The translations under genes and the position numbers were made by a program. Shown here one piece after another: positions 32,613 through 57,039 of a stretch of 57,039 nucleotides of DNA; the stretch's first letter is position 1; each line of letters opens with the position of its first letter. The notes below the pieces were generated by a model, which searched no databases, had not been told where the DNA came from, and saw nothing but the letters and a program-made list of their open reading frames with translations. The stretch is from assembly GCA_038231435.1 (NCBI GenBank), contig JBBRLJ010000033.1, positions 1 through 57,039 of the forward strand, given 5' to 3'. This stretch comes from Planctomycetota bacterium. Its GTDB lineage: Bacteria > Planctomycetota > UBA11346.

Positions 32613-32718
32613 CCACGAGGATACCACGGGATCGGGCCCATGCGCAACGCTGTGGCCGATGAGCCCCATAGGTCGATCGATCGGTCGGTCGAGGGCTGAT
32701 GGGCTGATGGGCTGATGA

Positions 32719-33615
32719 TCAGCTTGGCGGGACCAGCACCTGGACGGTCCCGCCATGGATCACTCGGTAGTGGCCTGGCCCAGCGATGAGCGGCTCGCCA
32801 TCGATCTGCATCGCCACCGCGTGGAGGATGTGCATGTCGACGCGGCGATGCGCGCCGAGCCGGTGGGCACGGCGGATCCCGCCCATCGCCAGGCCCATCG
32901 CCAGGCCGGCAGGCAGCGCGAAGGCGTCGAGCGATCCGTCGTCGGGTAGGATGCCCGACCCGAGCCGGGTCCCGCCTGCGTAGCTGGCGATGTTCGCCAG
33001 CACCACCGCCCCCGACCAGGCCGGCACCGCGATCGGGCCGGCGGCATGCAGTCGCACCGCGCCCGCGACTGGGCCGCCCCGCTCACCTAGCGAGACCATC
33101 CCGTAGAGCACCTTGTTCACCGTCGGCGAGCGGAACATGGCGGGATGATGCCGCCGCAGCGCGTGGAAACGGTGCGCTACGCGTGCATCGTAGCCGACGC
33201 TGAGGTAGTTGAACCAGGCGCGTTCGGGATGCCGAGCCCCCTCGGGAGCGCGCAGTACCCACCGGTCGATGCGGCGCGGGACTCCCGCGCGCAATGCCGA
33301 GAACACCAAGCCGCCACTGGATCGGCAGCCCATGCTGCGTGCGAGATCGTTGCCGGTGCCCAGAGGAACGATGCCGATGGGCACCGATCCACCAGCGCGC
33401 CACGAGGCCTCGAGCACGCAGGCAGCCGTGCCATCGCCGCCACAGGCGACCACTGCCCCGTCCTCGTCCCGGCTGCGTCGGATCGCCCGATCGATGTCGA
33501 CCCCCGCCAGGGGCAGCACCCGATCCTCTGGAAACAGCGTGCGCAAATGCTTCATCAACCACCTGCCGCGCCTGCCGCCGCTCTCGGCGTTGACGATGAA
33601 GATCAGTTCGCGCAC
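32719..33615 (-). CDS. Diacylglycerol kinase family protein (eukaryote-type catalytic plus accessory domains)
   Basis: 'FIVNAESGG', 'CGGDGT', 'PLGTGNDLAR', 'NYLSVGYDA', 'NIASYAGG', 'DDG', 'MQIDGEP'; GTG start inferred. Confidence 0.88.
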   Translation of the reverse strand: MRELIFIVNAESGGRRGRWLMKHLRTLFPEDRVLPLAGVDIDRAIRRSRDEDGAVVACGGDGTAACVLEASWRAGGSVPIGIVPLGTGNDLARSMGCRSSGGLVFSALRAGVPRRIDRWVLRAPEGARHPERAWFNYLSVGYDARVAHRFHALRRHHPAMFRSPTVNKVLYGMVSLGERGGPVAGAVRLHAAGPIAVPAWSGAVVLANIASYAGGTRLGSGILPDDGSLDAFALPAGLAMGLAMGGIRRAHRLGAHRRVDMHILHAVAMQIDGEPLIAGPGHYRVIHGGTVQVLVPPS

Positions 33616-34015: not shown

Positions 34016-34876
34016 GTGGAATCAGAACTCGAACGCCTGCGCAAGAAGGTGGAGAATTTCCCCTCCGCCTCCCTCTACAACCGGCTTGCCGAGCTTGCCC
34101 GCAATGCGGGTGGCAACGACGAGGCCGAGCAGGTGTGCCGCCGCTGCATGAAGGAGTTCCCTCGCAACGGCCAGGCCTACGTCATCCTGGCCGAGATCGA
34201 GTCGTCTCGCGGCAAGCGCGACGACGCCCTGAAGCTGCTGCAGACCGGCATCGAGCGCGACCCGCGCAGCGTCAACGGCTACATGCTGCTCGCGGACATG
34301 ATGGTCTTCGACAAGGACGTGCCGAAGGCGATCGCGAACCTGAGGCAGGTGCTCGCGATCAAGCCGAACGATGCCGCCGCCACCGCCAAGATCGCCGAAC
34401 TCGAGAAGGCCCACGGCATCGCCCCCTCGCCAGCCGCGGCCGCTGGCGCCGCTGGCAAGAGCTCGCTCGGGAATGAACCCCTGATGCCGTTCCAGGGTCC
34501 CATGACCACCGCGATCAAGGCCTCCACGGGCTCGCGCACCGCGACACTCGATGCGCTGTGCGCAGAGCCCGGAGTGCGCGGGGCCCTGGTGGTGGACATG
34601 CACGGCCGCGTGGTCGTGACCAAGAATCTCGCCGCCGGCCAGGACGAGCTGCTCGCCGCGCTGTCGGCGGACGTCGCCCGATCGGCCCAAGCGGCGCTGA
34701 CCGTGGTCGGCATCGAGAAGCTCTCGACCTGGGCGCTGACCGGCGGAGCCGGACAGGTGCTCACCTTCCAGCGCGATCGCGCATTCAGCGTGGTGGTGCT
34801 CGCCGATGTCACGGTCCGTCCGGCCATGCTCGAGCTGCGCGCCCGCCAGACCCTCATCGACCTCGGGGCCGCCTGA
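34016..34876 (+). CDS. TPR-repeat plus Roadblock/LC7 domain protein
   Basis: N-terminal TPR-like helical repeats; C-terminal 'PGVRGALVVDMHGRVV' roadblock; RBS AGGAG. Confidence 0.82.
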   Translation: MESELERLRKKVENFPSASLYNRLAELARNAGGNDEAEQVCRRCMKEFPRNGQAYVILAEIESSRGKRDDALKLLQTGIERDPRSVNGYMLLADMMVFDKDVPKAIANLRQVLAIKPNDAAATAKIAELEKAHGIAPSPAAAAGAAGKSSLGNEPLMPFQGPMTTAIKASTGSRTATLDALCAEPGVRGALVVDMHGRVVVTKNLAAGQDELLAALSADVARSAQAALTVVGIEKLSTWALTGGAGQVLTFQRDRAFSVVVLADVTVRPAMLELRARQTLIDLGAA

Positions 34877-35229
34877 TGAACGACCTCCTGCAACAGCTCA
34901 ATCGCGTGCGCGGCGTGGGCGGCACCATGCTGGTCTCCGGAGAGGGCCTGGTCATGGCATCCGCCCTGCGCCAGGGCACCGACGAGAACCAGCTCGCGGC
35001 CTCGATCGGCAACCTGCTCGAGGGCACCAACAAGATCTGCTCCAACTACCAGCTCGGCAAGCTCGCCGCGTTCAACGCCGCCTCGGAGCTGGGCGGCATC
35101 GTCGTGCTCTCCACCGGCCCGGCGTTCCTCGCGATCGTCATCGATCCGTCGGCGAATCTCGCCCTGCTCCAGCTGGAGACCAAGCCTTTCGTCGAACGCA
35201 TCACTCAGCGCCTGACGTTGGCGACCTGA
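34876..35229 (+). CDS. Roadblock/LC7 domain protein (MglB/MglC-like)
   Basis: 'LQQLNRVRGVGGTMLVSGEGLVMAS', 'ANLALLQLE'; 117 aa; start overlaps the upstream stop. Confidence 0.88.
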   Translation: MNDLLQQLNRVRGVGGTMLVSGEGLVMASALRQGTDENQLAASIGNLLEGTNKICSNYQLGKLAAFNAASELGGIVVLSTGPAFLAIVIDPSANLALLQLETKPFVERITQRLTLAT

Positions 35230-35269
35230 CGCACGCCGGACCGCCGACCCCCCACGCATCGGACAACCC

Positions 35270-36853
35270 ATGGTTCAGATCAATTTCGGCCAACGCGAAG
35301 TGAGTTGCAAAGTCGTCTTCTACGGACCAGGCATGTCCGGGAAGACGACCAATCTCGAGATCATCCATAAGAAGGCGCCGAAAGACGCCGTCGGCGAAAT
35401 GGTGTCGATCGCCACCGAGACCGACCGCACGCTGTACTTCGACTTCCTTCCGCTCGATCTCGGGCAGGTCGCCGGCATGCGCACCAAGTTCCAGCTCTAC
35501 ACCGTGCCTGGGCAGATCTATTACAACGCCACCCGCAAACTGGTGCTCCAAGGTGTGGACGGAGTGATCTTCGTCGCCGACTCGTCTCCCGAGAAGATGC
35601 CGGAGAACCTCGAATCGCTGCAGAATCTGCGCGACAATCTCGCCGAGATGGGTCTCACCCTCGACGACGTGCCGGTGGTCCTCCAATACAACAAGCGCGA
35701 TCTGCCGACGGCGATGTCGATCCCCGACATGAACGCGCAGATGAACCCTATGAACGCTCCGGTGTTCGAGGGCGTCGCGCGCGAGGGCAAGGGCGTGTTC
35801 GCCACCCTCAAGGAGATCAGCCGCCTGGTGATCGAGAAGCTCAACAAGGAGCATGCGCCGGCGTCCACCCGCCGGCGCACAGCCACCAATCTCGAAGGCA
35901 AGAGTCCCTCGCAGGGCGTGCCGGTACAGAGCCCGAGCGGCGCCAACAAGCTGCCGCCGATGCAGGCGGGCGTGCCCACCGGCGTCGCGCAGCGCCCGCA
36001 GGTACCCCAGCAACTCCCGCAAGGCACCTCGACCACTCCGCTCGGTCAGCAGCGCCTTCCCCAACGCCCGGCCGCCCCAGCCACGCAGATCCAAGGGCGC
36101 CCTGGTTCTGAACGCGGCGTTCCCGTGGTGCCTCCGCGCTCGCAAGGCGTGCCGCCACGCCCGAACTACACGCCGACTCCGGCGGGAGGCAACGCGGTGG
36201 TGCCCCCACCCGAGGACCTCAGCCCCAAGGACAAGCATCTCGCCAAGGCCAAGCCGCCGGCTATCGACAAGCGTGCCGCCGGTGCCAATCCGGATCTCGG
36301 TTCGACCGATCCCAATCTGCGCCGTTACCAAGAGAACAAGTCGGGCGGCGGAGCCGTCCGCGCCATGTTGCTGGTCCTGATCTTCCTGGTCATCGCCATC
36401 ATCATCCTCTTCATCCTGTGCATGTTCGTCCCGGCGGTACGCGCCCAGCTGCCGCCGAACATGCAGCGCATGTTCATGGGCGAATCGCAGGCCCATTCCG
36501 CTGCCCTGCCCATGGCGAGCTCGGCCGAGCCGGTGGCCAGCGCGCCAACGACCCCAGCAGCGCCGGTGGCGCATACCCCTGCGCCCGTCCTCCCCGACGC
36601 GCCGGCGGTGGCGGCTCCGGCCGCCACCGCTCCCATCGCCGCGGCTCCGACCGCGGCAGCTCCGGTAGCCGCCACCCCGCCGACTCCGGCTCCCGCCGCC
36701 GCGCCTACGCCGTCACCTGCTCCCCCGGTCGCTGCCGCCCCCGCCGCCACCCCGGCTCAGGAAGCACCAGCACCGACTCCGGCACCCGTGAACACGCCGG
36801 TCGCCGAGCCTCCAGCGGCTCCTCCAGCCACGACCCCGGCGGGGAGCCCGTAA
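35270..36853 (+). CDS. mglA: MglA-family small GTPase with Pro/Gln-rich linker, TM helix and Pro/Ala-rich tail
   Basis: 'KVVFYGPGMSGKTTNL', 'DRTLYFDFLP', 'LYTVPGQIYY', 'YNKRDL'; hydrophobic stretch 'MLLVLIFLVIAIIILFILCMFV'. Confidence 0.92.
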   Translation: MVQINFGQREVSCKVVFYGPGMSGKTTNLEIIHKKAPKDAVGEMVSIATETDRTLYFDFLPLDLGQVAGMRTKFQLYTVPGQIYYNATRKLVLQGVDGVIFVADSSPEKMPENLESLQNLRDNLAEMGLTLDDVPVVLQYNKRDLPTAMSIPDMNAQMNPMNAPVFEGVAREGKGVFATLKEISRLVIEKLNKEHAPASTRRRTATNLEGKSPSQGVPVQSPSGANKLPPMQAGVPTGVAQRPQVPQQLPQGTSTTPLGQQRLPQRPAAPATQIQGRPGSERGVPVVPPRSQGVPPRPNYTPTPAGGNAVVPPPEDLSPKDKHLAKAKPPAIDKRAAGANPDLGSTDPNLRRYQENKSGGGAVRAMLLVLIFLVIAIIILFILCMFVPAVRAQLPPNMQRMFMGESQAHSAALPMASSAEPVASAPTTPAAPVAHTPAPVLPDAPAVAAPAATAPIAAAPTAAAPVAATPPTPAPAAAPTPSPAPPVAAAPAATPAQEAPAPTPAPVNTPVAEPPAAPPATTPAGSP

Positions 36854-37368
36854 TGGTCAGCGAAAACGAGGCCCTGAAGTTGCGGCGACTGGTCTTTTAC
36901 GCCGCCGACATCGACAAGATCAATGGCGTCCTGCTCGCTTTCGTGAAGAAGGCCAACGCGCAATCCGCCCTGCTCATCGACCAGGAAGGCCACATGGTGG
37001 CCCGTCAGGGATTCCACCAGAGCCACGATTCCAGCGCTCTCGCCGCGCTCGTCGCGGGTAGTTTCGCCTCGACGCGCGAGGTCGCCAGGCTGCTCGGAGA
37101 GAAGGAGTTCCGCGTCCTGTTCCATCAAGGCACGGGCCAGAGCATCCACATCACCCTGCTCGGCGAGCGCACTCTCCAGGTCTGCGTGTTCTCGAGCCAG
37201 GTGAAGCCGGGAATGATCCAAGTGCTGTGCAAGGAGCTCTCGACCCAGCTCGAAGGAGTCCTCGTCGAAGCGTCGAAGCGCGCCCCGAGCGATCAGCAGC
37301 AGACCCTGGGCGCCGGATTCTCGGAAGCGATGAAGGACCAGCTCGACTCGCTGTTCGGCAATCTCTAA
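36853..37368 (+). CDS. mglB: MglB-like Roadblock protein (GAP of MglA)
   Basis: 'ALLIDQEG', 'ALAALVAGSFAST..VARLLGEKEF..LFHQG', C-terminal helix 'DQLDSLF', as in myxobacterial MglB. Confidence 0.88.
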   Translation: MVSENEALKLRRLVFYAADIDKINGVLLAFVKKANAQSALLIDQEGHMVARQGFHQSHDSSALAALVAGSFASTREVARLLGEKEFRVLFHQGTGQSIHITLLGERTLQVCVFSSQVKPGMIQVLCKELSTQLEGVLVEASKRAPSDQQQTLGAGFSEAMKDQLDSLFGNL

Positions 37369-37676
37369 ATCAGCGTCCGTCATCCGTCGTCGTCAGCCGG
37401 AGGCGGAGGGAACGTGAGCGAGGATCGATTCCGGACGTTTTCTCATCGCGGTGCCAGGGTCCGCCACTCGGCGTGAACGCGCCCGTCCACATCTGGAATG
37501 AGCGGAACGGCCGCGCTCGCGACCGACGTGCGAAACGACCGCGGTGGATCACCCGCCCGATGGCCCTCGCGGGGTTGGAAAGCGCTTACCCTACTGGGTT
37601 TCCCGCCTAGTCTGGTGTATCCTTCCAAGCACGCCGCTCGCGCTTTTCCCGCTCACACCGACACTCGGATACACCG

Positions 37677-40600
37677 ATGGGCTTCCAAGGCCAGCTCAGC
37701 TCTGTCAACCTGACTGACATCTTCCAGACGCTGAACATGAATCGGCAGACCGGGACGCTCGCGGTGTCCGGGCCGGTGACGAGCGTGCACATCTATTTCG
37801 ACCAGGGCCAGATCGCCATGTGCTCGGCGCCCGTGGTGAACAACCGTCCGTACCTGCTCGATGCCATGGTGCACAAGGGCCAGCTCGCTGCCGAGAAGGC
37901 CGACGAACTCAGCCAGCAGCTGCGCGCCTCGAACCAACCGCTGAGGGATCTGGTGCTGTCGTCCGGAGCGGTGGCGGACTACGAACTCGACGAGATGAGC
38001 GCGTGGTGCATCGAGGAGCTGGTGTGCCCGGTGTTCGAATGGCAAGAAGGCGACTTCACCTTCATCGACGGCGCGCCAGTCCAGGAGTTGACCTCACTCG
38101 ACGTGGTGGCGATGGGCAACGCGATGGTGCAGACCACGCAGCTGGTGATGGAAGCCACGCGCCGCATGGACGAGTGGAAACGCATCCGCGAGGTCATCAC
38201 CGACCCCGATGCCCTGTACATCGTCGACAACGATGGCCGCGCCAATCTCAAGAACGTGCAGACCGACCCCGAGATGCTCAAGGTGCTGCGCTACCTCGAC
38301 GGGCGCCACTCGCTGAATGCCATCGCCATGTCCGTCGGCGTCACCCGCTTCGACACCTTCGCGATCGTCGCCCAGCTCGTCCTCGCTGGCGTTGCGCGGC
38401 CGAAGACCGCCCAGGAGGTGGTGGACGACGCCGTCTCGCTGATGCAGCAGGGCGACATGCAGCAGGCCAAGGAGCTGCTCGACAACGCCATCCGCCAAGC
38501 CCCGATCCCCGAGGTGATGCGCCCTCTCGCCGAGTGCTGCGTGAAGCTCAACCAGGCCCCGCGCGCGGTCGAGCTGTACCTCGAACTCATCCAGATGGCG
38601 CAGGACCAGGGCGATCTGCCCAACGCGCTCGCCGATCTCGACACCGTCATCAACCTGTCGCCCGACGATCCGGATCTGCATTTCGAGCGCGGCCAGATCC
38701 AGGCCGAGCTCGGCCAAGTCGAACCCGCCGCCGCCTCGTACGCTACCGCCGCGCAGACCTACCTCGCGCGCAAGGATCTGCCGCGCGCCATCGACGCCTG
38801 CCATCGCGCCAAGAATCTCCTGCCGCGTTCCCCAGAACCGCACCGCTACCTGGCGCGTGCGTACCTGCTCGAGGGCCAGACCGAGAACGCGGTGGTGGAA
38901 TACAAATCGCTGTGGCATGCCCTGCTCACCGGCGAGCGGCCGAAGAAGGCGCTGGATACGCTGCGCGCGATCCTCGATGCCGACTGCAAGTACAACAACG
39001 TCAAGGACCAGGTCCTCGGCCATGCGCAGAATTCAGAGGCAATCAAGACCAGCAAGGCGGCGCGCATCCTGGTCTACGTCGCGATCGTCGCGCTCGCGGC
39101 CACCGCCATGGTCTTCGGCTGGGAATATTACCACGGGCACGTCATCAAGCAGTACGGCGAGAGCAAGGTCAACGACTTCGAGGCCACTCTCACCAGTGGC
39201 ATGCAGTCCGGCCGCCATCTCCAACTGCTCGAGGAGCTCGACGATCTCAAGACCAAGTACGGGACCAACTCCGAGGTCAGCCGCCGCCTCGAGGAGCGCC
39301 GCACGCAGATCGAGAAGGACTTCGAAGCGCGCGCCGGCCTCGAGTTCCAACGCGCCGACGCCGCGCGCGAAGCCGGCAAGTACGAAGAGGCCGAGGCCAT
39401 CATCGGCGAGATGAAGGTGAAGTACCAGAACACCCAGTCGGCCTCGAACGCCGACACCATCCTCGAGGCCATCCACTTCGAGCGCATCAAATCGCAGGTA
39501 TCGACGAAGATGAAAGAGGCCGAGAGCCTCTGGAACAACCTCAATTGGGACGGCGCCATCGCCATCCTCCAGACCATCCTCGACCGTAAGGATCTGCCCG
39601 CCTCGCTGCGCGAGGACTACACGCGCTCGATGGCCGAATGGTCCGACGCATCCAAGAGCGCGCAGAAGCTCTACGAGCGCGCCCAGCGCTATGAACAGAA
39701 CGGATCGAAGCACGAGGTGCTCACCGCCTTCCGGCGCGCCGCCACCGGCCAGGGCGAGCAGTGGGCCGACAAGGCCCGCGCCCGCGTGCTCTCTATCGAG
39801 CTCGAGATGGCCCACGACCTCGGGAAGCTCGCCGCCGACGCCGCCAACCGTGGCGACGACCAGGCGACCTTCACCCAGGTGGACGAGCTTGCGACGCTGG
39901 CCAAGGAGGCCTCAGGCCGCACCGTCGGCGACTACTACGCGACGCTCGAGCTGCCCTTCACCCTGCAGATGGACAGCAACCGCGTGCAGCTCTCGATCAA
40001 GCGGCCAGGAGCCGAGGAGAGCCGTGTTTCGGCGCCCGCTGGCAAGCGCGGCAGCTGGTCGGAGCGGATCACCTACCGGGTCAACGAATCGGTCACGGTC
40101 GAGGCCTCGCGTCCGGGATTCTCGCCGCAGAAGTTCTCAATCGACGTGAAGGGACGCAAGACCCAGGCCGTGGTCTCGCTTTCACGCGGTTGGCGCTGGC
40201 GCACCGACCTGTCGGGAGCCTCAGCCACCCGCCCCATCGTCGCCCAGAAGCTGGTGCTGCTCGGCACCGACAAGGGCACCCTCGAGATGATCGACCCGGT
40301 GCTGGGTGCGAACCGCGAGGTGAAGTTCCCGAACAACATCGCCGAATTCACCGTCGCGCCGTTCGTCTACCAGGATCGCGCCTACGCGGTGCTCGACGAC
40401 CACGTCTTCGCGGTGGATCTCAACAGCCGCGTGCGGCTGTGGCAGTGGCCGCAGTCCTTGAACGCCCAGGACCGCCTCAACGGCCACCTGTGGGTCCAGG
40501 AGCACGAGATCAAGCCCGGCCAGCTGCTGGTGTTCGCGGCGACCATCAAAGCTGGCCTGCAGATCATCGAGGTCGACCCCACCGGCGCGACGCGCGCCTA

Positions 40601-41267
40601 TCCCAAGCTGGCGTCCGACGCCGACATCACCGGCGCTCCATTCGTCGACCATCCCGCCGGGATGTCGATCCTGTACGTGCCCGCCGGCACCAGCCTGATC
40701 GCCTACGACATCTCCGAGATCACCGAGCTCAGCCCGCCGCGCAAGCTCTACACCCTGCAATCCCGCGGCGATCTCATCGGCAAGCTGGTCAAGGCCAAGG
40801 TCGCAGACCGCGACTCGCTGATGGTCAGCGACATGTCCGGCGTGGTCATGGCGTTCGACTGCGACCGCAACGTGCCGGACAGCAAGCGCGTCGTCGCGGC
40901 CTGGCCGATCGACGGCACCTCGCCATCGACACCCGTGCTGCTCCCCGGCCAGCCGGTCGCATTCGTCTCGGTCGCCGAGGGGCGCATCGTGGCGATCGAT
41001 CTCGCGCACCCGGGCCAGCTGCTCTGGCGCTTCCCCGCCCAGGGCAGCTTGGGCACCCTGCCCGGGTCCCCCGCCATCGGCGCGCACGGCGTCTATATCG
41101 CCGATGGCAAGGGTCTGCTGCACTGCCTGGATCCGCTGACCGGCAGCGAGCGTTGGAAGGCCGATGTCGGCGGCGCCGCGGTGGGCGGCGTGTTGGCGTA
41201 CGACGGCCGAGTGTTCGTGCCCACCAAGGCTGGGCAGCTGGTCTGCTTCGAGGAAGGCGACGAATAG
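37677..41267 (+). CDS. DUF4388 (PATAN-like)-TPR-TM-PQQ/BamB-like beta-propeller protein
   Basis: 'FQGQLSSVNLTDIFQTL...TGTL...IYFDQG...FEWQEGDFTF...LVMEATRRMDEW'; TPR repeats; TM at about 39065-39123; PQQ-like repeats 'LHCLDPLTGSERW'. Confidence 0.85.
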   Translation: MGFQGQLSSVNLTDIFQTLNMNRQTGTLAVSGPVTSVHIYFDQGQIAMCSAPVVNNRPYLLDAMVHKGQLAAEKADELSQQLRASNQPLRDLVLSSGAVADYELDEMSAWCIEELVCPVFEWQEGDFTFIDGAPVQELTSLDVVAMGNAMVQTTQLVMEATRRMDEWKRIREVITDPDALYIVDNDGRANLKNVQTDPEMLKVLRYLDGRHSLNAIAMSVGVTRFDTFAIVAQLVLAGVARPKTAQEVVDDAVSLMQQGDMQQAKELLDNAIRQAPIPEVMRPLAECCVKLNQAPRAVELYLELIQMAQDQGDLPNALADLDTVINLSPDDPDLHFERGQIQAELGQVEPAAASYATAAQTYLARKDLPRAIDACHRAKNLLPRSPEPHRYLARAYLLEGQTENAVVEYKSLWHALLTGERPKKALDTLRAILDADCKYNNVKDQVLGHAQNSEAIKTSKAARILVYVAIVALAATAMVFGWEYYHGHVIKQYGESKVNDFEATLTSGMQSGRHLQLLEELDDLKTKYGTNSEVSRRLEERRTQIEKDFEARAGLEFQRADAAREAGKYEEAEAIIGEMKVKYQNTQSASNADTILEAIHFERIKSQVSTKMKEAESLWNNLNWDGAIAILQTILDRKDLPASLREDYTRSMAEWSDASKSAQKLYERAQRYEQNGSKHEVLTAFRRAATGQGEQWADKARARVLSIELEMAHDLGKLAADAANRGDDQATFTQVDELATLAKEASGRTVGDYYATLELPFTLQMDSNRVQLSIKRPGAEESRVSAPAGKRGSWSERITYRVNESVTVEASRPGFSPQKFSIDVKGRKTQAVVSLSRGWRWRTDLSGASATRPIVAQKLVLLGTDKGTLEMIDPVLGANREVKFPNNIAEFTVAPFVYQDRAYAVLDDHVFAVDLNSRVRLWQWPQSLNAQDRLNGHLWVQEHEIKPGQLLVFAATIKAGLQIIEVDPTGATRAYPKLASDADITGAPFVDHPAGMSILYVPAGTSLIAYDISEITELSPPRKLYTLQSRGDLIGKLVKAKVADRDSLMVSDMSGVVMAFDCDRNVPDSKRVVAAWPIDGTSPSTPVLLPGQPVAFVSVAEGRIVAIDLAHPGQLLWRFPAQGSLGTLPGSPAIGAHGVYIADGKGLLHCLDPLTGSERWKADVGGAAVGGVLAYDGRVFVPTKAGQLVCFEEGDE

Positions 41268-41477
41268 CCATCGAGGCCATCGCGCCCGATCGCCGGCAAG
41301 GCCTCCCCTCGCAACCATCGACTCGGTTGACCACGCCAATAATCCTGTCCGGACGTTACAAGACCCGTGCGTCTCATCCCGAAGTACTTGCGCCCAAATG
41401 CCTTCGGTGGTGTCATGCCAGGGTGCTGGTGGGCAACGCCACGGCTGAGATGCGGTAGAACATCCCCTGGAGCCGGC

Positions 41478-42017
41478 ATGACGCGCAAGGGTTTCACGTT
41501 GATGGAGTTGCTGGTGGTGATCGGGATCATCATGATCCTGCTCGGCATGCTGTTTCCCGCCATGAACATGGTGAAGAAACAGGCGATGAAGACCAGGTGC
41601 CGGAGCCAGATCGCGCAGGTGACCGTCGCCTGCGAGCACTACCGCCTGCTCAATGGCGACTACCCCGACAGCCTCCTGATCAAGTCCACGCTGATGCCAG
41701 CCGCCACCCCGAAGACCGCCGACACCATCAGCGAGAGCGATTGGGTGGCCGTCGCCGGTGAACTTCTCCCGCTGCTCGCCAAGTCCGATCGCGATCCGTT
41801 CGGCGTGACCGGCTATTCGCTGCTGGACCCGTGGAAGGTCAAGGTCCTGCGCTACCGGCCGGTGAAGTATTATCCGTACCTCGCCGGAGCGCCGATCGCC
41901 ATCGACACCGACGCGCCGCCACATCCGGATTCGTTCCAGATCTGGTCGGCCAGCGCCGACGAGATCGACCAGCACGGCGACAAAGACACCGACGACATCA
42001 CCAATTGGAAGCAGTGA
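41478..42017 (+). CDS. Type II secretion/type IV pilin-like protein (GspG-like)
   Basis: Prepilin site 'KG^FTLMELLVVIGII', 'Y...NGDYP', 'LDPW', 'IWSA..D....DDITNW'. Confidence 0.9.
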   Translation: MTRKGFTLMELLVVIGIIMILLGMLFPAMNMVKKQAMKTRCRSQIAQVTVACEHYRLLNGDYPDSLLIKSTLMPAATPKTADTISESDWVAVAGELLPLLAKSDRDPFGVTGYSLLDPWKVKVLRYRPVKYYPYLAGAPIAIDTDAPPHPDSFQIWSASADEIDQHGDKDTDDITNWKQ

Positions 42018-42025
42018 TCCGGCCC

Positions 42026-43339
42026 ATGCGCAGCGGACCGGTCACTCTGCGAAGGGCGCCATCCACAGCCACGCGGCTGGGCGGGGGCTTCACGCTGATC
42101 GAGCTGCTGGTGGTGATCGGCATCATCATGATCTTCATGGGCATCTCGATCGGCGCGATCCTGCACACCCCGCGTGTCAACGCCCTGGTGGGCACCGAGC
42201 ACATGGTCGCCGACGTGGTGCGGCAAGCCCGCCACGCCGCACGCAGCTCGGGCACTCCGGTGACCATCGAGATCAGCCAGACCGATCGCTCGGTGCTCGG
42301 CGTCAGCCAGCTGATGCTGTGGAACGAGACCTTCGAGGAGACCGCGATCCCGCCACAGTTCTCGGTGCTGATCGGTCGTTCCGGCAAGGGCCTCACCAGT
42401 CTGACCGGCCCGCCGAAGACCTCGCTCGCGCCGATCCCGCTCGACCGCTCCAAGCGCCTGGCCCGCCGCACCGCGCGCGGCCGCACCGAGGGTTTCTACA
42501 TCTCGTGCAGCGTGAAACCCGGTCCGGCGAGCGACAAGGCGATCGTGCCGCTGATCCTGGTCGGCAGCGACGACGAGGACCAGTGCACCTGCGGCTTGGT
42601 GCTGCAGGGCTTGCGCCGGAAGATCCAGCACGTCGACCATGTGCCGGTGCTGCCCACCACGCCGGCGCCATACGAGCCGACCTTCGACTGCTGGGAGATC
42701 CTCGGCTGGGTGAACTCCGAGAGCTCCGGCAAGAAGTGGGTGAGCTCGATCAACGACGTGGCCGCTGGCGGCGAGGTCGAGACGCTGTCCGGCACGGTCC
42801 GCGACACGCCCGCGCTGTTCGATGGTCCCGATATCGCCGCGCCCATGAATGGCGACAGCTGGGACGAGGTCGGCATGCTCTACGACGGCGAGCGCCTCGA
42901 GCTCTACCGCAACGGCGTGCTGGTCGGCGCCAAGCCTTTCGAAGGCGGCTACCTCAGGGGCGCGACCGTGGCCACCGACGACAGTGTCCACCTCGGCCAC
43001 GGCAAGTTCCCCACCAGCCTGAGCCTCCTGCCGGTCGCCGATCAGGAAGTGGAGCTGGGCGGCATCATCGACGACGCGCGCCTCTACCGGCTCGCCATCG
43101 ACCGCGCCGGCACCCTCCCGGCTGGCGTGACGCCGCAAGCGAGCTACCGCATCACCGTGCATCCCGACGGCCATGTGCAGGCCAGCAGCTACGGCGAGAG
43201 TCCCGCGACCATTCCCGTCGCCACCAGCGACCTGAAGTTCGCCATGTCCGGCGGCGTCGCCACGCGCGGAGACCAGCTGGTCACCGTCAACCTCAGCGTC
43301 GATGGGGTCGTCACCAGCGCGACCACCACGGTTCCCTGA
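42026..43339 (+). CDS. Prepilin-like protein (GspH/FimT-like) with LamG-like domain
   Basis: 'GG^FTLIELLVVIGII', 'RQARHAA', 'W..VGMLYDGERLELYRNG', 'GIIDDARLY'; GTG at 42014 is an alternative start. Confidence 0.85.
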   Translation: MRSGPVTLRRAPSTATRLGGGFTLIELLVVIGIIMIFMGISIGAILHTPRVNALVGTEHMVADVVRQARHAARSSGTPVTIEISQTDRSVLGVSQLMLWNETFEETAIPPQFSVLIGRSGKGLTSLTGPPKTSLAPIPLDRSKRLARRTARGRTEGFYISCSVKPGPASDKAIVPLILVGSDDEDQCTCGLVLQGLRRKIQHVDHVPVLPTTPAPYEPTFDCWEILGWVNSESSGKKWVSSINDVAAGGEVETLSGTVRDTPALFDGPDIAAPMNGDSWDEVGMLYDGERLELYRNGVLVGAKPFEGGYLRGATVATDDSVHLGHGKFPTSLSLLPVADQEVELGGIIDDARLYRLAIDRAGTLPAGVTPQASYRITVHPDGHVQASSYGESPATIPVATSDLKFAMSGGVATRGDQLVTVNLSVDGVVTSATTTVP

Positions 43340-43420
43340 TCCGTGATCTCCATGCCACGGACAGACGTTCATCCGCCAGCCCCTCGACGGCCAGACTCTC
43401 CTCGGATACCACGGACAGAC

Positions 43421-46400
43421 ATGCCACGTTCCGGTGCCGCCCTGATCCTCGCCCTGGTGCTGCTCGCGGCCCTGCTGCTGCTCGGCCTGCCCTTCCTGTA
43501 CACGCAGTCCTCCAGCCTCGCAGGCACGCGCTCGTTCGCCGACAGCAAGGTCGCGCAGATCGGGCGCGACAGCGCGGCCAACATGGCCACCGCGATCGCC
43601 GCCTATGCCGAGACCCCGTCGCTGCGCGCGGCCCTGCCGGGAAGCCCGACCGCGGCGTGGACCAGCCTCGCCGAGACTTATGCACCGTGGGCTCCGGTGG
43701 CAGGATTCGCCGCGCCCATCAATCCCGATACCCCCGCCGGCTACAAGGCAGCGGTGGTGCCGCTCGACGCCGGTCCGAACGGAGACGGCTCGATCGGACT
43801 ATTGCCCGAGGGCTTCCCGCTCACGCCGACGGCGTACAACGCGGTTCCCCTGCCTTCGGAGACCAAGCAGCGCACCTACCTGGGCGCGATCGTCACCGAC
43901 GAGGCGGGCAAGCTCGACCCCAACGACATGGGGCCGGTGGTGTGGCAGAAATTCCTCGCGGCCCTCGGGATCACCGACTGGGATGACAACGAGGTGGTGC
44001 CAGCGCCATACCCGTACGACTCCGACACCGTCGGCCAGCTCGCCCAGCATCTCGCCAGCGTGCGCTTCAATCTGCCCGACCGCCGCATCACCGATCTCGA
44101 GCAGCTGCTGCGCGCCAATCCCCAATCGCAGCACCCGCTGTTCCGCCACCGCCTTACCCGCGCCGAGCTCGAGCGCATGCGCCCGTACCTGACGCTGCAC
44201 AACCCGCGCCAAGGCCGCGACGGCTTCATCGATCTCGGCACCGTGGTCGCGCGCGATACCATCCACGACACCTTCTGGCTCGACAGCGTCCCGGATCCGA
44301 AGCATCCGCTGCTGGGCATAGGTTCGGTGGTGGCGAGCGAGACCCAATATGCGACTCCCCCGCAGGCGCACATCATCGGCATGGTCAATGGCATCGCGGA
44401 AACCGGCGAATCCGAACAGGTGGTGCACGGCAAATCCCTGTTCGTCCCTGATCGCGTCGCCAATCCGTTCGCCGCGGTGGGATCGGCCATCGCCATCGAG
44501 GCGCCCGCGCCGCTTAACATCCACCAGCTGGCGGTGGTGGTGCGCAAGACCCTGAACAACGGTTCGGCCGAGAAGCCCGTCGACGATGGCGGCACCCCGG
44601 TCGACGATTCGGTGGTGCGCACCATCGGCCAGCAGGCCGGCGCCAACCCGCCGTCGAGCCTCGGACATTTCCTCACCGTGCCCGGCGCGACACCGACCTA
44701 CGGCAACCTCTTCGGCCTCAGCTACACGCTGAACCTGCCCGTGAATTCCCCCGCATTCACCGTGGCGAACGAACAGCCGCCGCTGGGCATCAGCTCGATG
44801 GGCATCTTCACCATCGAAGCCGCCGCCACCGTCACCGACGTGCTCGGCCGGCAGACCGCGCAGGAGCTGCGCCGCGACGTGATCCAGGCGGTGCCGCAGG
44901 AATACCTGCTCGAGCGCCGCTGGATCACCCAGGGCGATCTGCACACCCTGATCGCACAGCGCTACGCCAGCCAGATGCAGGCCTGGCCGACGGCGTACGA
45001 GCGCCGCCTCGGCGCCGCGGGCGCGCCGATCTTTCCCGACGACCTCGACCTCGGCGTCACGCCTCCTCCACCCATCACCGCTGACTCCGGCATCCGCCCG
45101 CGCGTGCTGCCCGACATCGCGGCGCTCGCCGCCACCGCCCCCAACGTCGAGGAGCTGCGCAATACCCACGTCGCCGTCGATTGGCGCGTCTCGTTCGGCG
45201 GCGAGAAGATGGCCCTCGACGCCGACATCTTCAGCGCCACCACCACCGTCGCCACGCCCGACGCGCCGTACAAGCCGGTGGCTCCCGCGGCGGCGGCCGT
45301 CGACATCACGCCCGACGGCTATGACCACCAGCTCAGCGCCGATCTCGCCTACCGGCTGCACGGGCAGACGCTCCCAGTCGCGCCTGCCTCGAACAACGTC
45401 GGCTTCCTCACCGAGCGCCGTCCGGTCGACCCGGCCATCGATTCGCACGAGCTGACCTCTCGGCACCTCAGCTTGTGGTTCAAACCCAAGAACGACTGGA
45501 CCGGCGGCGGCGTCATCCCGATCTGCGAAGCGCGCATACCGGTGGCGACCGCGATCCCGCAGCTCGGGCAGGTCGCGGCGGCCGCGGGCGCCGACGACAG
45601 CCAGAACTACCTCGGGCTCTATTACGACGACAGCAAGGAGATGCTGATCCTGGCGTTGGCCCCGCCCAGCGCCGAACACGACGTCGATTACAGCCCCGGC
45701 GGCGCCACCACCTACCCGCCAGACAACGTCACCTCGATCACCTCGATGACCATCGACGAACGCTCGCTGTCGAGCTTCTTCATCCCGACCGACGCGAAAC
45801 CGTTGTGCCCGAAGGACCCGAACCTCCTCGGCTTCTCGTCCCTCGGCAAGGCCAACCGCGTCCTGCACTGCTACTGCACGCCGAAATCAGACACCAAGCC
45901 GCACTTCCGCCAGAACCAGTGGTACCACCTGCAGGTGGCGCTCGCGAGCGACCGCGCCGAAGGCGCGGACATCATCCTCGACGGCGTCGTCGGCCAAGAG
46001 CTGGCGCACCGCGCGGTGGGATCCACCGCCGTGCTCGGTGACCACTTCACCCTGCCCAGCGCGATCCTCCAGACTCCCCTGCCGTATGCCGTGAACGACG
46101 CGAGCATGACGCTCTACGTCGCCGACATCGCGCTCACCACCCCCATGGGCATCCCGTTGACCCAGCTCCTGCCGGCGCGCGGTTTCGTACGCATCGACGA
46201 CGAGTACATCCGCTACGATTCCATCATCGGTTCGAACCTGCACGATTGCATGCGCGGGCAGCGGCAGAACACCTTCGTCACCGGCGCCGATCCACTGAAG
46301 CAGTATCCCAACATCCAACAGCACCTGGTCGGCGCGCTGGTGGTGCCCGGCGGCTACCGCCTGGGCCTGGACACCGGGCGCATCTACCGCGGAGGCTGCG

Positions 46401-48970
46401 CCCTGCAGCAGGACTTCGCGAGCGGAGATCCGATCATCGGCAGCGCCCACCCGTGGGAGATCTGGGGCAAGGTCGACAAGTCGCAGATGCCGGTTTTCGG
46501 ACCCGATCGCCGTCTGAATACCACCGACGACATCCCCATCCACAACGTCCCCGTGCCCTTCCCGCCACTCGGCGGAGTGGTGATGATCACATTCAAAGGT
46601 CAAACCGAGTTCCGGTACTACACCGCCTCCTCTGGCACCACACTGACCGGAGTGCAGACCATCGAGACCTGGCCGGTGATGCCGGCCGGCAGCCCGACCT
46701 CCGCCGCGCCCAACGCGATCACCGTGCTCAGCACCGATGCGGGCGAGCCGACCATCGAACTCGTCGGCATGCCGGTCACGGGCGCCGATCCGCTCGAGGC
46801 CGGCCGCTACACCCAGAGCTACGTGGGCTCGAACGCCTTCCTGCTGCAAGTGCAGGAGACCACCGGCCGCATCGAATGGGTGAAGTACCACTTCATCCTT
46901 GGCGCCGACGCGGGGATCGCGCCCACCACCGGGTTCTTCCTGAACCTCGATGGCTTCACCTACAAGCCCGATCCCCTCACCTCGTCGCGCGGCATCGGAC
47001 GGACCGACTTCGGCGCCAAGGTCGGCAGCTATGTCGGCCCCCTGTCGATCTTCGCCGCCGGCAGCCAGGTGCTGCCGGTCCAGACCGAACTGGGTAACCA
47101 CGGCCACTGGGTCGCCACCGGCGATCTGGTCACGCTGCTGCCGAAGGTCTTGCCCGGCACCGAGAAACCCTTCCAGGCGGCCATCCGCTACGCCGCGACC
47201 GATGCCTACCCCCAGCCGACCCTGCCGGTGAACGACCCGCTGCAGATCGATTCGAAGAACGAGTACTTCGCCTTCTCGGCACCGCTCGATCCCGTGCTCA
47301 CCGGCGGCGCCTGGACCGCGCCGATCGTGGCCGCGAAGTACGACCTGCTCTGTGGCACCTGCTGGAGCGGCGGCGACCTGACCCCACGCGAGACCCCGGT
47401 CGGCGTCACCAGCGCCATCGACGAGCCACGCGGCCAGCTGCCGCGGCTCGACCTGTGGGCGGACGGCTACCTGCTCGGCGACGGCAGCTCGGCGCGTATC
47501 TTCTTCGGCAGCCAGGACAGCGAACGCCCGAGCGTCGGCGCTGGCGTGTCGACAGCGCTGACCATCGACGACATCTGCGCTGGACCGCTCGCAGGCGCTC
47601 CGGGGAACATCGACGGCCACGAGCTGAGCACCGGCTCGCCAGCGCGTACCAATGTCGTCACCAACGGCATCAAGCGCTTCTTCGATGCGTCCGGCGCCGA
47701 GAAGCTCAACGTACTGCCCGCCGACCTGGGCATGTTCGCCCAGGCGACCACCCCGCTGTTCGATTGGGCTCACGGCAAGATGGGCCTGGTCGACATCGAT
47801 GGCGAGGTCTTCGCCTATCAACAGCTCAGCGATGCCGACGCGCTGATGATCGCCGGCAAGTACAACCTGCTGCCCGAGAACGCCACCAACCCCACCGACC
47901 AGAACCAGGTGAAGAACGGCGGCCTGTTCGCCAAGCTGGTCGGGCGCGGCCTGCTGGTGGTGGACACCGGCGTCTACACCCACGTCATCCCGGACGGCCC
48001 GCTGGTGGCCAACAACCAGATCCGCCGCCCACTGCTGAGCGCGAAGCGCCTGCCTGTCGGGCCGGTGCTGCAGCTGGCCGAGGCGCTGACGGCAGGCAGC
48101 TGGTTCGCGCTCCAGGACGCCATCCCCGTCGGGCCCATCCAGCCGCGCACGCTCTTCGCTCCCGCGGCGCTGTTCTGCGACCCGACCGGCGTGGTGGCCA
48201 AGAACGAGGTCATCCAGTTGATCGGGCCGAAATTCCACCGCGACTATCCGGTGGGATCGCCAATGGCCCAGGAAGGCAAGTACACCACCGCCGCCTGGCT
48301 GCGCGGCATGTACAACACGCCTGTCGCCGGCAGCTGGAGCGGGGCCGCGGACCCCAAGCCGATCGTGATCGGCTGGTGGCCACGCCTGCCGAGTGCGCTG
48401 CCGAACGGCGCGCTCACCAAGGAGCACTTCCGCAGCCGCTCCTACGCCTGGGTGGGCTTCCCCTTCAGCCTCTATGGCGCGTATTTCGATCAGACCCGGA
48501 TCGCCATGCTGCCGGCGCCGTACAGCACCATGTCCCTGGCCGAAGCGACCGAGGATCCGAACCACCGCTTCCTCGACGGCTCTGGCAATTCCTACTTCAC
48601 CGTCCAGGCGCGCGCGCTGGCCTATGAGAATATCTGGTCGGGCCCAGGCGTGCCCGCCACCCCAACCACGCCCTGGTATCCGGCGATGGACTGGTCGCAA
48701 CAGACCGGGGTCGAGCTGTCGCTGGGCTTCCCGATCGGAAATATCTTCCTTCCCGTCGTGGATGCCGAGATGTGCTTCACCGAGCCGTCGACGCGCGACG
48801 CGCGTCCGGTGGATGGCGCCGAGATGCGCATCACCTGGCAGTACGCGAACGGCCCCTCGCCGAAGCTCGATGATCTCGCCGACGCCACCGGCCGCTGCCC
48901 GGCCATCACCTCGGCGCGACTGCGCTGCCTCGCTCCTGTTCGCGTGTTGGCGAATTCGAGGTCGCGATGA
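43421..48970 (+). CDS. Giant GspK/PilX-like minor pseudopilin with a large beta-rich C-terminal region
   Basis: 'RSG^AALILALVLL' (no Glu5, as in GspK/PilX); GspK-like motifs 'IVTDEAGKLDPN' and 'MRPYLT'; LamG-like 'LSLWFKP' and 'QWYHLQV'. Start between 43343 and 43421. Confidence 0.75.
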   Translation: MPRSGAALILALVLLAALLLLGLPFLYTQSSSLAGTRSFADSKVAQIGRDSAANMATAIAAYAETPSLRAALPGSPTAAWTSLAETYAPWAPVAGFAAPINPDTPAGYKAAVVPLDAGPNGDGSIGLLPEGFPLTPTAYNAVPLPSETKQRTYLGAIVTDEAGKLDPNDMGPVVWQKFLAALGITDWDDNEVVPAPYPYDSDTVGQLAQHLASVRFNLPDRRITDLEQLLRANPQSQHPLFRHRLTRAELERMRPYLTLHNPRQGRDGFIDLGTVVARDTIHDTFWLDSVPDPKHPLLGIGSVVASETQYATPPQAHIIGMVNGIAETGESEQVVHGKSLFVPDRVANPFAAVGSAIAIEAPAPLNIHQLAVVVRKTLNNGSAEKPVDDGGTPVDDSVVRTIGQQAGANPPSSLGHFLTVPGATPTYGNLFGLSYTLNLPVNSPAFTVANEQPPLGISSMGIFTIEAAATVTDVLGRQTAQELRRDVIQAVPQEYLLERRWITQGDLHTLIAQRYASQMQAWPTAYERRLGAAGAPIFPDDLDLGVTPPPPITADSGIRPRVLPDIAALAATAPNVEELRNTHVAVDWRVSFGGEKMALDADIFSATTTVATPDAPYKPVAPAAAAVDITPDGYDHQLSADLAYRLHGQTLPVAPASNNVGFLTERRPVDPAIDSHELTSRHLSLWFKPKNDWTGGGVIPICEARIPVATAIPQLGQVAAAAGADDSQNYLGLYYDDSKEMLILALAPPSAEHDVDYSPGGATTYPPDNVTSITSMTIDERSLSSFFIPTDAKPLCPKDPNLLGFSSLGKANRVLHCYCTPKSDTKPHFRQNQWYHLQVALASDRAEGADIILDGVVGQELAHRAVGSTAVLGDHFTLPSAILQTPLPYAVNDASMTLYVADIALTTPMGIPLTQLLPARGFVRIDDEYIRYDSIIGSNLHDCMRGQRQNTFVTGADPLKQYPNIQQHLVGALVVPGGYRLGLDTGRIYRGGCALQQDFASGDPIIGSAHPWEIWGKVDKSQMPVFGPDRRLNTTDDIPIHNVPVPFPPLGGVVMITFKGQTEFRYYTASSGTTLTGVQTIETWPVMPAGSPTSAAPNAITVLSTDAGEPTIELVGMPVTGADPLEAGRYTQSYVGSNAFLLQVQETTGRIEWVKYHFILGADAGIAPTTGFFLNLDGFTYKPDPLTSSRGIGRTDFGAKVGSYVGPLSIFAAGSQVLPVQTELGNHGHWVATGDLVTLLPKVLPGTEKPFQAAIRYAATDAYPQPTLPVNDPLQIDSKNEYFAFSAPLDPVLTGGAWTAPIVAAKYDLLCGTCWSGGDLTPRETPVGVTSAIDEPRGQLPRLDLWADGYLLGDGSSARIFFGSQDSERPSVGAGVSTALTIDDICAGPLAGAPGNIDGHELSTGSPARTNVVTNGIKRFFDASGAEKLNVLPADLGMFAQATTPLFDWAHGKMGLVDIDGEVFAYQQLSDADALMIAGKYNLLPENATNPTDQNQVKNGGLFAKLVGRGLLVVDTGVYTHVIPDGPLVANNQIRRPLLSAKRLPVGPVLQLAEALTAGSWFALQDAIPVGPIQPRTLFAPAALFCDPTGVVAKNEVIQLIGPKFHRDYPVGSPMAQEGKYTTAAWLRGMYNTPVAGSWSGAADPKPIVIGWWPRLPSALPNGALTKEHFRSRSYAWVGFPFSLYGAYFDQTRIAMLPAPYSTMSLAEATEDPNHRFLDGSGNSYFTVQARALAYENIWSGPGVPATPTTPWYPAMDWSQQTGVELSLGFPIGNIFLPVVDAEMCFTEPSTRDARPVDGAEMRITWQYANGPSPKLDDLADATGRCPAITSARLRCLAPVRVLANSRSR

Positions 48971-50088
48971 CCCGCCTGCTGACCCATCCGGTGCGCGCCT
49001 CGTCGCGCGCGGGCTTCACCCTGGCCGAGATCCTGGTCTCGATCCTGATCTTCACCATCGTCTCGCTGGCGATGGTCACCATCCTGCTGACCTCGACCAA
49101 TGTCTTCCGTGCCGGGGAATACGGGCGCGCGTCCACCGACGAGGCGATCTCGGCCCTGGGCATCATCGACGACGATCTCAAGCGCATGGTGCCCGAGAAA
49201 GCGGGCGGTTTCTTCTGCTGCCGCTTGTTCTCCGGCACGGTGCCGCCGGCTGCGACTCCTCCCAATGGCAATTGCGCGGTTGCCTTCCTGATCACCGATC
49301 CGGATCCGGACGCGATCACCATCTCAGGGGAAAAAGCCCGCAAGCTGGCGGTCTACTGGGTGACCACCGTCGTCATCAACGGGGTCGACGGCTCGCCGCA
49401 CCGCGAGGAGCAGCTCTACCGCGCGCTCTCGCCGATCGCCAGCGAGGACGACGAACCGGGTCCCGGAGATCCGCCGCTCCCGCCGACCGTCCTGAATGTC
49501 GACGTGGTCAACCGCTACCTCGCCCTCCAGGATCCGTCCGGCGTCAGCGCCACCGCCCCCGTACCCCTCCCGAACTGCCTGCTGCGCGCGAAGCCGGTGA
49601 TCATCGCGCGCAACTGCCTGCATTTCAGCGTGTGGGTCTCCAACGCCAACAGCCGCCGCCAGCCGATGAACCCCACCGGGACCACCGACAATTGGCTGAA
49701 GGACACGGCAAACATCGAGATCGCGCCGACTCTCGCGGGAGCCGACTACTGCACCGAGACGGTGCCGGGCTTCGTGCCCGATCCCTTCCCGATGGCCGTG
49801 CGCTTCTCGGTCACGCTCGCCTCGGGCCGCTATGGCCCGAGCGGCTACGTGATCGAGGACCAGAATCCCAACATCAGGATCGCCGGCGTGCAGGGCGTGC
49901 CCACGGTGCCCGGCGCCATGGTGCGCATCGATGACGAATGGGTGCAGTACCGCGACTACGTCGGCGGCGTGCTCCAGGTCGACCCTGCCATGCGCGGCGC
50001 CCGCCGCAGCACCATGACGACGCACCTCCGCAACGCTCCGGTGCGGCTCGGCCAATCGTACACCCTGGTGCGCACCTTCGCGCATTGA
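48967..50088 (+). CDS. Prepilin-like protein (GspJ/PilW-like)
   Basis: 'AG^FTLAEILVSILIF', 'IIDDDLKRM'; ATGA overlap with the upstream gene. Confidence 0.85.
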   Translation: MTRLLTHPVRASSRAGFTLAEILVSILIFTIVSLAMVTILLTSTNVFRAGEYGRASTDEAISALGIIDDDLKRMVPEKAGGFFCCRLFSGTVPPAATPPNGNCAVAFLITDPDPDAITISGEKARKLAVYWVTTVVINGVDGSPHREEQLYRALSPIASEDDEPGPGDPPLPPTVLNVDVVNRYLALQDPSGVSATAPVPLPNCLLRAKPVIIARNCLHFSVWVSNANSRRQPMNPTGTTDNWLKDTANIEIAPTLAGADYCTETVPGFVPDPFPMAVRFSVTLASGRYGPSGYVIEDQNPNIRIAGVQGVPTVPGAMVRIDDEWVQYRDYVGGVLQVDPAMRGARRSTMTTHLRNAPVRLGQSYTLVRTFAH

Positions 50089-56689: not shown

Positions 56690-57039
56690 GGGGGCTTTGC
56701 CCCCAAACCCCCACGGGCTTTGTCGGGCTCGATGTCTCCGCTGCGCTGCGACATCGTCGGCGGATCGGCTGCGCCGATTATATCCGCCGACCGCCCCTCG
56801 GCGCCCGCCCCATCGCGAAGCGATGGGGCCCCCGGGCATGAACGTTATGTGAATGGTCACGCGTTTTGGACATGGGGCACTGCCCACTCTCAAGCCGTGG
56901 CGAAGCCACCGGCCGCTCCTCGAACCGGAGCGTAAGCGACCGGGCGCCGAGGGGCGGTGGGCGGATACAATGGGCGGAGCCCATCCGCACACGTTTTCGC
57001 CGGCTCCGGCGAAAACGAGCCACGACAAAGCCCGTGGGG
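56690..57039. repeat. Palindromic REP/MITE-like element, copy B (truncated by the window end)
   Basis: Perfect 17-bp inverted repeats at 56709-56725 and 57023-57039. The left arm is a diverged direct copy of 32-156; the right arm is a near-identical inverted copy of 32-130. Confidence 0.88.

Follow-up and report, generated by a model that had tools for sequence, protein, structure and literature searches.

A membrane-anchored MglA gene block beside a giant-pilin cassette in Planctomycetota: a case for two modules

When genes of a polarity switch and genes of an extracellular filament follow one another on one strand, do they encode one machine or two? The question is raised by a 57,039-nt stretch of planctomycete DNA (GenBank JBBRLJ010000033.1; hereafter the window), which is one entire contig of a 5.2-Mb genome (G000, 88% complete). 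Nine open reading frames (ORFs), all on the plus strand, lie in the order g1, g2, MglA (g3), MglB (g4), g5, G, H, K, J (Table 1); g1, g2 and MglB are Roadblock proteins, g5 joins PATAN, tetratricopeptide repeat (TPR) and propeller regions, and G, H, J and the giant K resemble prepilins. Stop and start codons overlap at g1/g2 (TGATG, 34874-34878), MglA/MglB (TAATG, 36851-36855) and K/J (ATGA, 48967-48970), g2 is separated from MglA by 40 nt and G from H by 8 nt, and wider gaps flank g5. An earlier interpretation of the letters alone (the sequence-only reading) described nine co-oriented genes with stop/start overlaps in this order, in a probable planctomycete, and took them for one dedicated system. 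The gene order and the host stand; the single system is not supported. We slightly favour a division into module 1 (34016-41267, g1-g5) and module 2 (41478-50088, G-H-K-J). On this account, which we hold at the same modest strength, the two modules are conserved independently and have been neighbours since the family ancestor, and module 1 would be a polarity switch with a pilus-motor output.

Module 1 recurs far beyond the window's family. Our sample comprised 161 Planctomycetota genomes, each at least 85% complete; the counts across it are descriptive, since related genomes are not independent and most of the profile sequences come from the window's own family, both of which inflate them. 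MglA orthologues and g5-type proteins each occur in 96 of the 161 genomes, with both present in 91, neither in 60 and one only in 10. Of the 88 MglA genomes outside the family, at least 44 have a g5-type gene no more than 6.5 kb from mglA, a lower bound taken from rows for 66 of the 88. A core of TPR(-Roadblock), Roadblock and MglA is found in 34 of the 36 out-of-family loci read directly (hand count), with a g5-type gene beside it or one gene away in 24, upstream, downstream or on both sides; 20 further mglA neighbourhoods were judged from coordinates, not DNA. Among relatives, g1 is the conserved first gene of the block, and the narrow MglB-g5 gap in five of them (Table 1) suggests that MglB and g5 are probably one transcript. 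Judged by gene content and order, g1-g5 is thus one five-gene unit over much of Planctomycetota, and co-distribution and adjacency outside the window's family bear out the Mgl-g5 unit of the sequence-only reading.

The join between the two modules, by contrast, is specific to the family. K or J matches lie within 10 kb of mglA in 0 of the 76 out-of-family genomes that have both, the nearest being a weak K match 15 kb away; many of these contigs are short, but the 36 directly read loci agree. Furthermore, the out-of-family cassette has surroundings of its own, being preceded, in five of the seven loci viewed, by a conserved run: a carbohydrate-binding-module (CBM)-like gene, a PilM-like gene, two small genes and a TPR gene. 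Of the testable family genomes, 17 of 30 retain the MglB-g5 joint and 16 of 24 the g5-G joint; the figure for a control joint, between g1 and its unrelated, divergent lipid-kinase neighbour, is 16 of 22, and this joint is also kept across the deepest split of the family (counts by hand, genomes cut by contig ends left out). The gene terC likewise lies 3' of J in several family genomes. The window is of less value than the sequence-only reading supposed, because the union of Mgl and pilin genes is confined to one family and does not exceed the background level of conserved gene order. Module 2 is probably transcribed on its own, and the g5-G gap leaves room for a promoter; a scan of the DNA gave no sigma-70-type promoter-like site and seven terminator-like sites, equal to shuffled sequence and uninformative. 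We take the join for an old rearrangement, whether or not the cell makes use of it.

What the family does preserve lends something to the contrary explanation, a dedicated nine-gene machine in which the Mgl switch acts through g5 to position and gate a giant-K filament, g5 having replaced the TPR gene before G. All nine genes share one contig in seven family genomes (G000, G007, G012, G016, G023, G031:C55 and G035), Mgl, g5 and pilin genes are contiguous in 11, and a single-marker FastTree phylogeny of PolA places three of the seven in its deep clade. The nine-gene order therefore stands on both sides of the deepest split and is ancestral in the family. Where the block is broken, g5 stays with the pilins in four genomes (G003, G005, G033, G010) and with Mgl in four others (G006, G022, G030, G025), and the g5-G gap shrinks to 44 nt in G003 and G005. 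Outside the family a TPR gene holds the same position before G. In addition, K or J matches occur in 84 of 96 MglA genomes versus 24 of the 65 without an MglA match. Those 24 genomes also count against a dedicated machine, as do the absence of linkage outside the family, joints that break as often as the lipid-kinase control, the placement of the cassette's I-type subunit and of its PilM-like gene elsewhere in the window's own genome, and about 14 other multi-pilin cassettes there. Taken together, these observations make a single nine-gene machine unlikely, and we regard specific control of the giant-tip pilin set by module 1 as doubtful. The test that the sequence-only reading set for itself thus goes half against it: linkage is missing in the 76 out-of-family genomes, and within the family the joints are kept no better than the control.

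Two cases called for care in these counts. One contig (G031:C38, equal to L039; L155-L157) is near-identical to window 24670-57039 but runs into the polA of another genus; it is therefore a probable chimera and was excluded from every count. In G017, the ORF carrying the MglA tail has an unrelated N-terminus, and this genome was counted only for the MglB-g5-pilin joints. In another family, two other prepilins lie directly 5' of the g5-type gene in the Mgl block (L110:10697-12735, G059:C41), the sole case in 36 loci; considered as G and H, they were rejected, not being G/H orthologues, and are a weak lead only.

The window's MglA is a Group-1 enzyme with a conserved membrane tie. Its GTPase domain matches the solved Thermus and Myxococcus proteins (3t12, 6h17, 5ymx) at E 1e-86, and all 31 aligned sequences keep the G1 motif GPGxxGKT, R53, the G3 motif TVPGQ (containing Q82) and NKxD without change; by sequence, the catalytic motifs are intact. 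We take R53 to be an intrinsic arginine finger, with residue roles and numbering partly as in PMC4316618. Behind the proline-rich linker, all 24 distinct family sequences have a transmembrane (TM) helix, one of these sequences being a copy of that in the window. So do 29 of 32 complete orthologues from outside the family; that set leaves aside three truncated at contig ends, one that was not called and two that are second paralogues. Myxococcus and Thermus MglA share the GTPase motifs, but at about 195 aa they have no tether, whereas the window's protein has 527 aa. In a survey table of PMC4316618, 449 of 488 MglA sequences are shorter than 240 aa. Elsewhere in the window's genome, a 1439-aa protein (L002:7517-11833, G000:C17) joins a second MglA to a protein-kinase-like domain, a TM helix and an extended outer part, and similar long frames occur in many family genomes. 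In some other genomes (L169 in G044, G110, G077) the MglA of the module has no anchor and there are many extra MglA paralogues (up to 11 matches).

The remaining small genes of module 1 resemble the accessory proteins of known Mgl systems. MglB matches its M. xanthus orthologue over residues 12-169, reaches 64 bits against the NCBIfam Thermus MglB model (under the cut-off of 200), and is coupled to mglA, its start overlapping the mglA stop. Only three Roadblock matches exist genome-wide, namely g1, g2 and MglB. The best solved matches of g2 are generic Roadblock/LC7 proteins (7f8m, 7yh1), and no chain named MglC is among its five matches up to E 1; Roadblocks diverge fast. The MglB C-terminal helix, extra Roadblocks and TPR partners are all shared with the Myxococcus/Thermus systems (with MglC and SgmX), which differ in lacking three Roadblocks in one operon, one of them TPR-fused, together with a trans-membrane PATAN-TPR-propeller gene. 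None of the nine genes encodes a kinase domain, so the CvnA-type membrane histidine kinase of actinobacterial conservons (Group-2 MglA) is missing here. The Bdellovibrio hub of MglA and Bd2492 (PMC3983030) is alike in pairing MglA with a TPR protein and in having envelope-assembly-like neighbours (TamAB there, a BamB-like propeller here); mglB is lost and S21 present in Bdellovibrio, whereas the window keeps mglB and has G at the equivalent residue.

The structural model shows g5 as an inner-membrane-spanning protein whose PATAN and TPR regions lie on the inner side and whose arm of TPR, sandwich and propeller lies outside. Specifically, a PATAN/DUF4388 and winged-helix-like region (residues 1-240; PF14332, 83.5 bits versus a cut-off of 25) precedes TPRs at 244-448, a hydrophobic and poorly modelled TM segment lies at about 464-482, and TPR-like helices (489-755), a beta-sandwich (757-832, PEGA in homologues) and an eight-bladed BamB-like propeller (836-1193) follow. 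The top 50 structure matches of the propeller are eight-bladed BamB/WD40-type, with WD40 and designed propellers scoring equally well. PilY1 is not among the propeller matches listed, and a cytoplasmic N-terminus followed by a TM helix is unlike a tip adhesin. PATAN is the same domain as DUF4388 and binds PilB1 and PilC in Synechocystis (bioRxiv 2021.06.11.447907). Cyanobacterial PatA-type proteins in the same study likewise carry DUF4388 at the N-terminus. The C-terminal receiver domain of that type has no counterpart in the g5 model, in which PATAN is followed by TPR, TM, helices, sandwich and propeller, the last three forming a large outer arm. Database relatives of g5 are named by their domains only. 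TPR arrays occur in both g1 and g5, and TPR alone is not diagnostic of an SgmX- or Bd2492-type effector. A predicted complex of MglA(2-197), GTP and Mg with g5(2-455) scored 0.00 and was given no weight either way.

Paralogues of g5 occur elsewhere in the window's genome. Two stand in tandem (L001:5296-12947, G000:C37), one of DUF4388-TPR-zinc ribbon-TM-PEGA-propeller layout (1341 aa) and one more diverged (1133 aa). We considered this locus as a second g5-pilin link and rejected it: the g5 paralogue is divergent and lies one gene from the closest G paralogue, on the other strand. A short DUF4388 protein (G000:C51:28323-29077) adjoins CheW genes in a PatA-like chemosensory setting.

What would module 1 act on? 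We lean towards a pilus output, by analogy. MglA-GTP acts on type IV pili via TPR proteins in Myxococcus and Bdellovibrio (PMC11580455, PMC7519303, PMC3983030), and PilT copies average 5.6 in the 96 MglA genomes versus 2.8 in the 65 others, a weak and kin-inflated hint. A competing view gives module 1 a non-pilus output: choice of a division or budding site in cells lacking FtsZ, focal-adhesion-like crawling with g5 as an analogue of GltJ, or placement of outer-membrane assembly through the BamB-like propeller. Gliding complexes are anchored by GltJ, a membrane protein to which MglA-GTP binds on the cytoplasmic side (PMC11135422). Like GltJ, g5 is laid out as a trans-envelope receptor, with a cytoplasmic part that is a candidate MglA-GTP reader and an outer part reaching into the envelope; GltJ ZnR-GYF and g5 PATAN-TPR share no domains, so the likeness is one of analogy. 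The propeller, the lack of a detectable FtsZ in the genome, and pilus genes that are near-universal in the phylum where module 1 is not, also agree with such an output. Against it, the PATAN domains characterised so far all work on the pilus motor, and both of the MglA-TPR pairs that have been characterised have an effect on type IV pili (PMC7519303, PMC3983030). PilT copies are expanded in MglA genomes, and likeness to an eight-bladed propeller is generic. We judge a non-pilus output unlikely.

Module 2 is built of prepilin-like proteins whose family scores are low. The sequence-only reading called them GspG-, GspH-, GspK/PilX- and GspJ-like; the prepilin motifs of G, H and J and the GspK fold of K uphold this, with the correction that the locus has no GspI/PilV-type member. 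LamG, weak in H itself, is above the cut-off in the H orthologue of G058. Against the Verru_Chthon cassette models, H hits TIGR02596 over 60 N-terminal residues only (25.5 bits versus a cut-off of 70). An I-type pilin follows J in G058, G116 and G134. The best match to such a protein in the window's genome is a solitary I/V-type prepilin (G000:C31:35606-36184; E 6.6e-9) that is single-copy in 37 of 41 family genomes and is, by sequence, a candidate for the displaced fifth cassette subunit. Matches of K type occur in 84 and of J type in 93 of the 161 genomes, with K and J paired within 9 kb in 58. Several family genomes also have a second H-K pair without G or J (L115-L120).

The identification of K rests on its fold. 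By sequence, K has no Pfam, NCBIfam (E 0.01) or Protein Data Bank (PDB) match, while a model of residues 1-1009 (predicted local distance difference test, pLDDT, 62) aligns with the GspK chain 3ci0_K over 228 residues (Z 12.1, root-mean-square deviation 3.5), which supports a GspK-like identity of the giant gene. The model also matches XcpX (Z 11.8; the top Foldseek rows are XcpX), the JBD30 baseplate (Z 8.4) and ComZ (6qvi, Z 5.8). The GspK fold (residues ~33-494) is followed by a LamG/ConA fold (~580-990) and a phage-tail-like beta domain (~878-977), which is repeated in J (profile E 4e-5 at residues 318-355), and the prepilin-like N-terminus GAALILAL is conserved in 23 sequences. The ESM Atlas returned unnamed or LamG-bearing clusters for K at 0.89-0.90 and leads below 0.8 for residues 1000-1849; profile comparison of K halves gave a probability of 26%.

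Could G-H-K-J be ordinary type II secretion system (T2SS) pseudopilins beside unrelated Mgl genes? G scores best against GspG and J against GspJ, K has the GspK fold, and the G, H and J motifs and the missing glutamate at position 5 (E5) of K are shared with T2SS GspG-H-I-J-K, type IVa pilus (T4aP) minor pilins and Thermus ComZ. Yet the family scores all lie below curated cut-offs, and K is about six times as long as GspK and bears lectin-like domains. In contrast to the T2SS and T4aP sets, the order is G-H-K-J(-I), K-type proteins have 1400-2400 aa with LamG and phage-tail-like domains, H carries LamG, I is displaced in the window's family, and machinery genes are absent from the locus. The usual partner of the cassette is a PilM-like gene, the genome has retraction ATPases, and module 1 would be left unexplained. 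We consider this explanation very unlikely. The sequence-only reading had also offered contact-dependent predation as a role, and nothing at the locus points to it.

Consistent with that reading, no ATPase, platform or peptidase gene lies within the window, and all are present on other contigs of the genome, which encodes three MshEN-PilB, five PilT-family, two PilC, four PilM and five secretin genes and one prepilin peptidase. There are 68 prepilin-motif hits. Multi-pilin cassettes lie on G000 C1, C7, C9, C11, C12, C18, C19, C26, C27 and C30, many with pilin-like proteins of 1000-1350 aa unrelated to K. CheW genes are present; neither FtsZ nor flagellin was found in the 88%-complete genome.

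Several observations weigh against the two-module interpretation and its pilus output. In 13 of 30 family genomes and 12 of 36 loci outside the family, g5 stands apart from the Mgl block, and three of the 32 out-of-family MglA orthologues have no membrane anchor. PilT occurs in 158 of 161 genomes, so that pilus presence cannot explain where module 1 occurs. Several g5-type paralogues per genome mean that these proteins may be a general signalling family. We infer both MglA-g5 and g5-PilB/PilC binding, and the pilus output is drawn by analogy. Finally, seven genomes spanning the deepest split keep all nine genes, and K/J are enriched with MglA; if two modules is correct, this persistence and this enrichment are largely historical.

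With two modules, a working mechanism can be outlined. Anchored MglA on its long flexible linker would cycle GTP at the membrane, with MglB serving as GTPase-activating protein (GAP) for it, and g1 and g2 pairing as extra Roadblocks that place or tune the GAP, as MglC and RomY do in Myxococcus. The trans-envelope partner g5 would mark an envelope site and pass the state of the switch onward, its PATAN domain recruiting or gating PilB/PilC, the extension motor in a type IV pilus machine whose genes lie elsewhere. The result would be directed surface movement or polar adhesion, in a cell with no FtsZ or flagellin found. Module 2 and the displaced I-type gene would supply pilins and tip for one among the cell's several variants of type IV filament, and giant K may be a GspK cap that has lectin-like and tail-like binding domains built in. 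A bolder extension, which we think rather unlikely, is a membrane-confined polarity machine in much of the phylum that links an external signal or landmark to type IV motors and, in the window's family, directly steers a filament capped by the giant, lectin-like GspK.

Table 1. Features of the nine-gene stretch and its two widest gaps (positions in the window)
Feature	Coordinates	Strand	Description	Evidence
g1	34016..34876	+	N-terminal TPR repeats and C-terminal Roadblock/LC7, 286 aa	TPR_14, E 5.6e-11; Robl_LC7 at 34544-34765, above cut-off
g2	34876..35229	+	Stand-alone Roadblock, 117 aa	Robl_LC7, E 1.2e-8
g3 (MglA)	35270..36853	+	Group-1 MglA GTPase (residues 1-197), Pro-rich linker, TM helix (~366-384), Pro/Ala-rich outer tail, 527 aa	E 1e-86
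g4 (MglB)	36853..37368	+	MglB orthologue with C-terminal helix, 171 aa	E 6e-24 to M. xanthus MglB
MglB-g5 gap	37369..37676		308 nt	8-24 nt in 5 of 15 relatives measured
g5	37677..41267	+	PATAN-TPR-propeller protein, 1196 aa	DUF4388, TPR and PQQ_2 matches; model pLDDT 87
g5-G gap	41268..41477		210 nt	44-305 nt in relatives; room for separate promoter
G	41478..42017	+	GspG-like prepilin, 179 aa	N_methyl; TIGR01710 51.5 bits, below cut-off 88.85
H	42026..43339 (start 42005 or 42026)	+	GspH/FimU-like prepilin with LamG, ~437 aa	N_methyl; weak Laminin_G_3
K	43421..48970	+	Giant GspK/PilX-type tip pilin without E5, 1849 aa	GspK fold; start from homologue alignment
J	48967..50088	+	GspJ/PilW-like prepilin with C-terminal copy of phage-tail-like domain, 373 aa	N_methyl; TIGR01711 24.5 bits, below cut-off

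Other features of the contig lie outside the nine genes. One long ORF (23434-25917) joins dephospho-CoA kinase and Rho domains, and relatives' ORFs of similar length suggest that the fusion is real. Two tandem Ser/Thr kinase-TPR genes of about 1100 aa (25936-32756) lie upstream of the lipid kinase and were not seen there in the relatives' upstream regions read. A REP-like repeat of about 100-130 nt (32-157 and 56692-56807) recurs on many contigs of the genome, often at contig ends.

Neither module is described in any paper found by a literature search with subscription papers mostly outside it. PMC4316618 notes in general terms that mglA/B lie near PATAN genes and that some Group-1 loci have two MglB; the fixed five-gene Planctomycetota order is absent from its main text, where the string 'planctomyce' occurs 0 times, although its supplements could list long MglA sequences. 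The main text of a 2026 preprint on phagocytic planctomycetes (10.64898/2026.10.26.761892) contains no Mgl, Roadblock or pilus term.

MglA has been studied in Myxococcus, Thermus and Bdellovibrio as a small, soluble, pole-shuttling protein, and the membrane-tied form described here differs from it. Module 1 is a five-gene candidate for the setting of polarity in planctomycetes, kept in over half of the sampled Planctomycetota, and the giant-K cassette is a second widespread, unannotated unit. Module 1 also offers a test of PATAN as a general link from polarity to the pilus motor, a matter left open by the cyanobacterial study (bioRxiv 2021.06.11.447907). According to PMC11481906, crawling, and division in which the poles are pulled apart, occur in some cultured deep-branching planctomycetes through an unknown mechanism. 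If the bolder extension above is true, it would give a first molecular grip on how deep-branching, FtsZ-less planctomycetes move over surfaces in a directed way.

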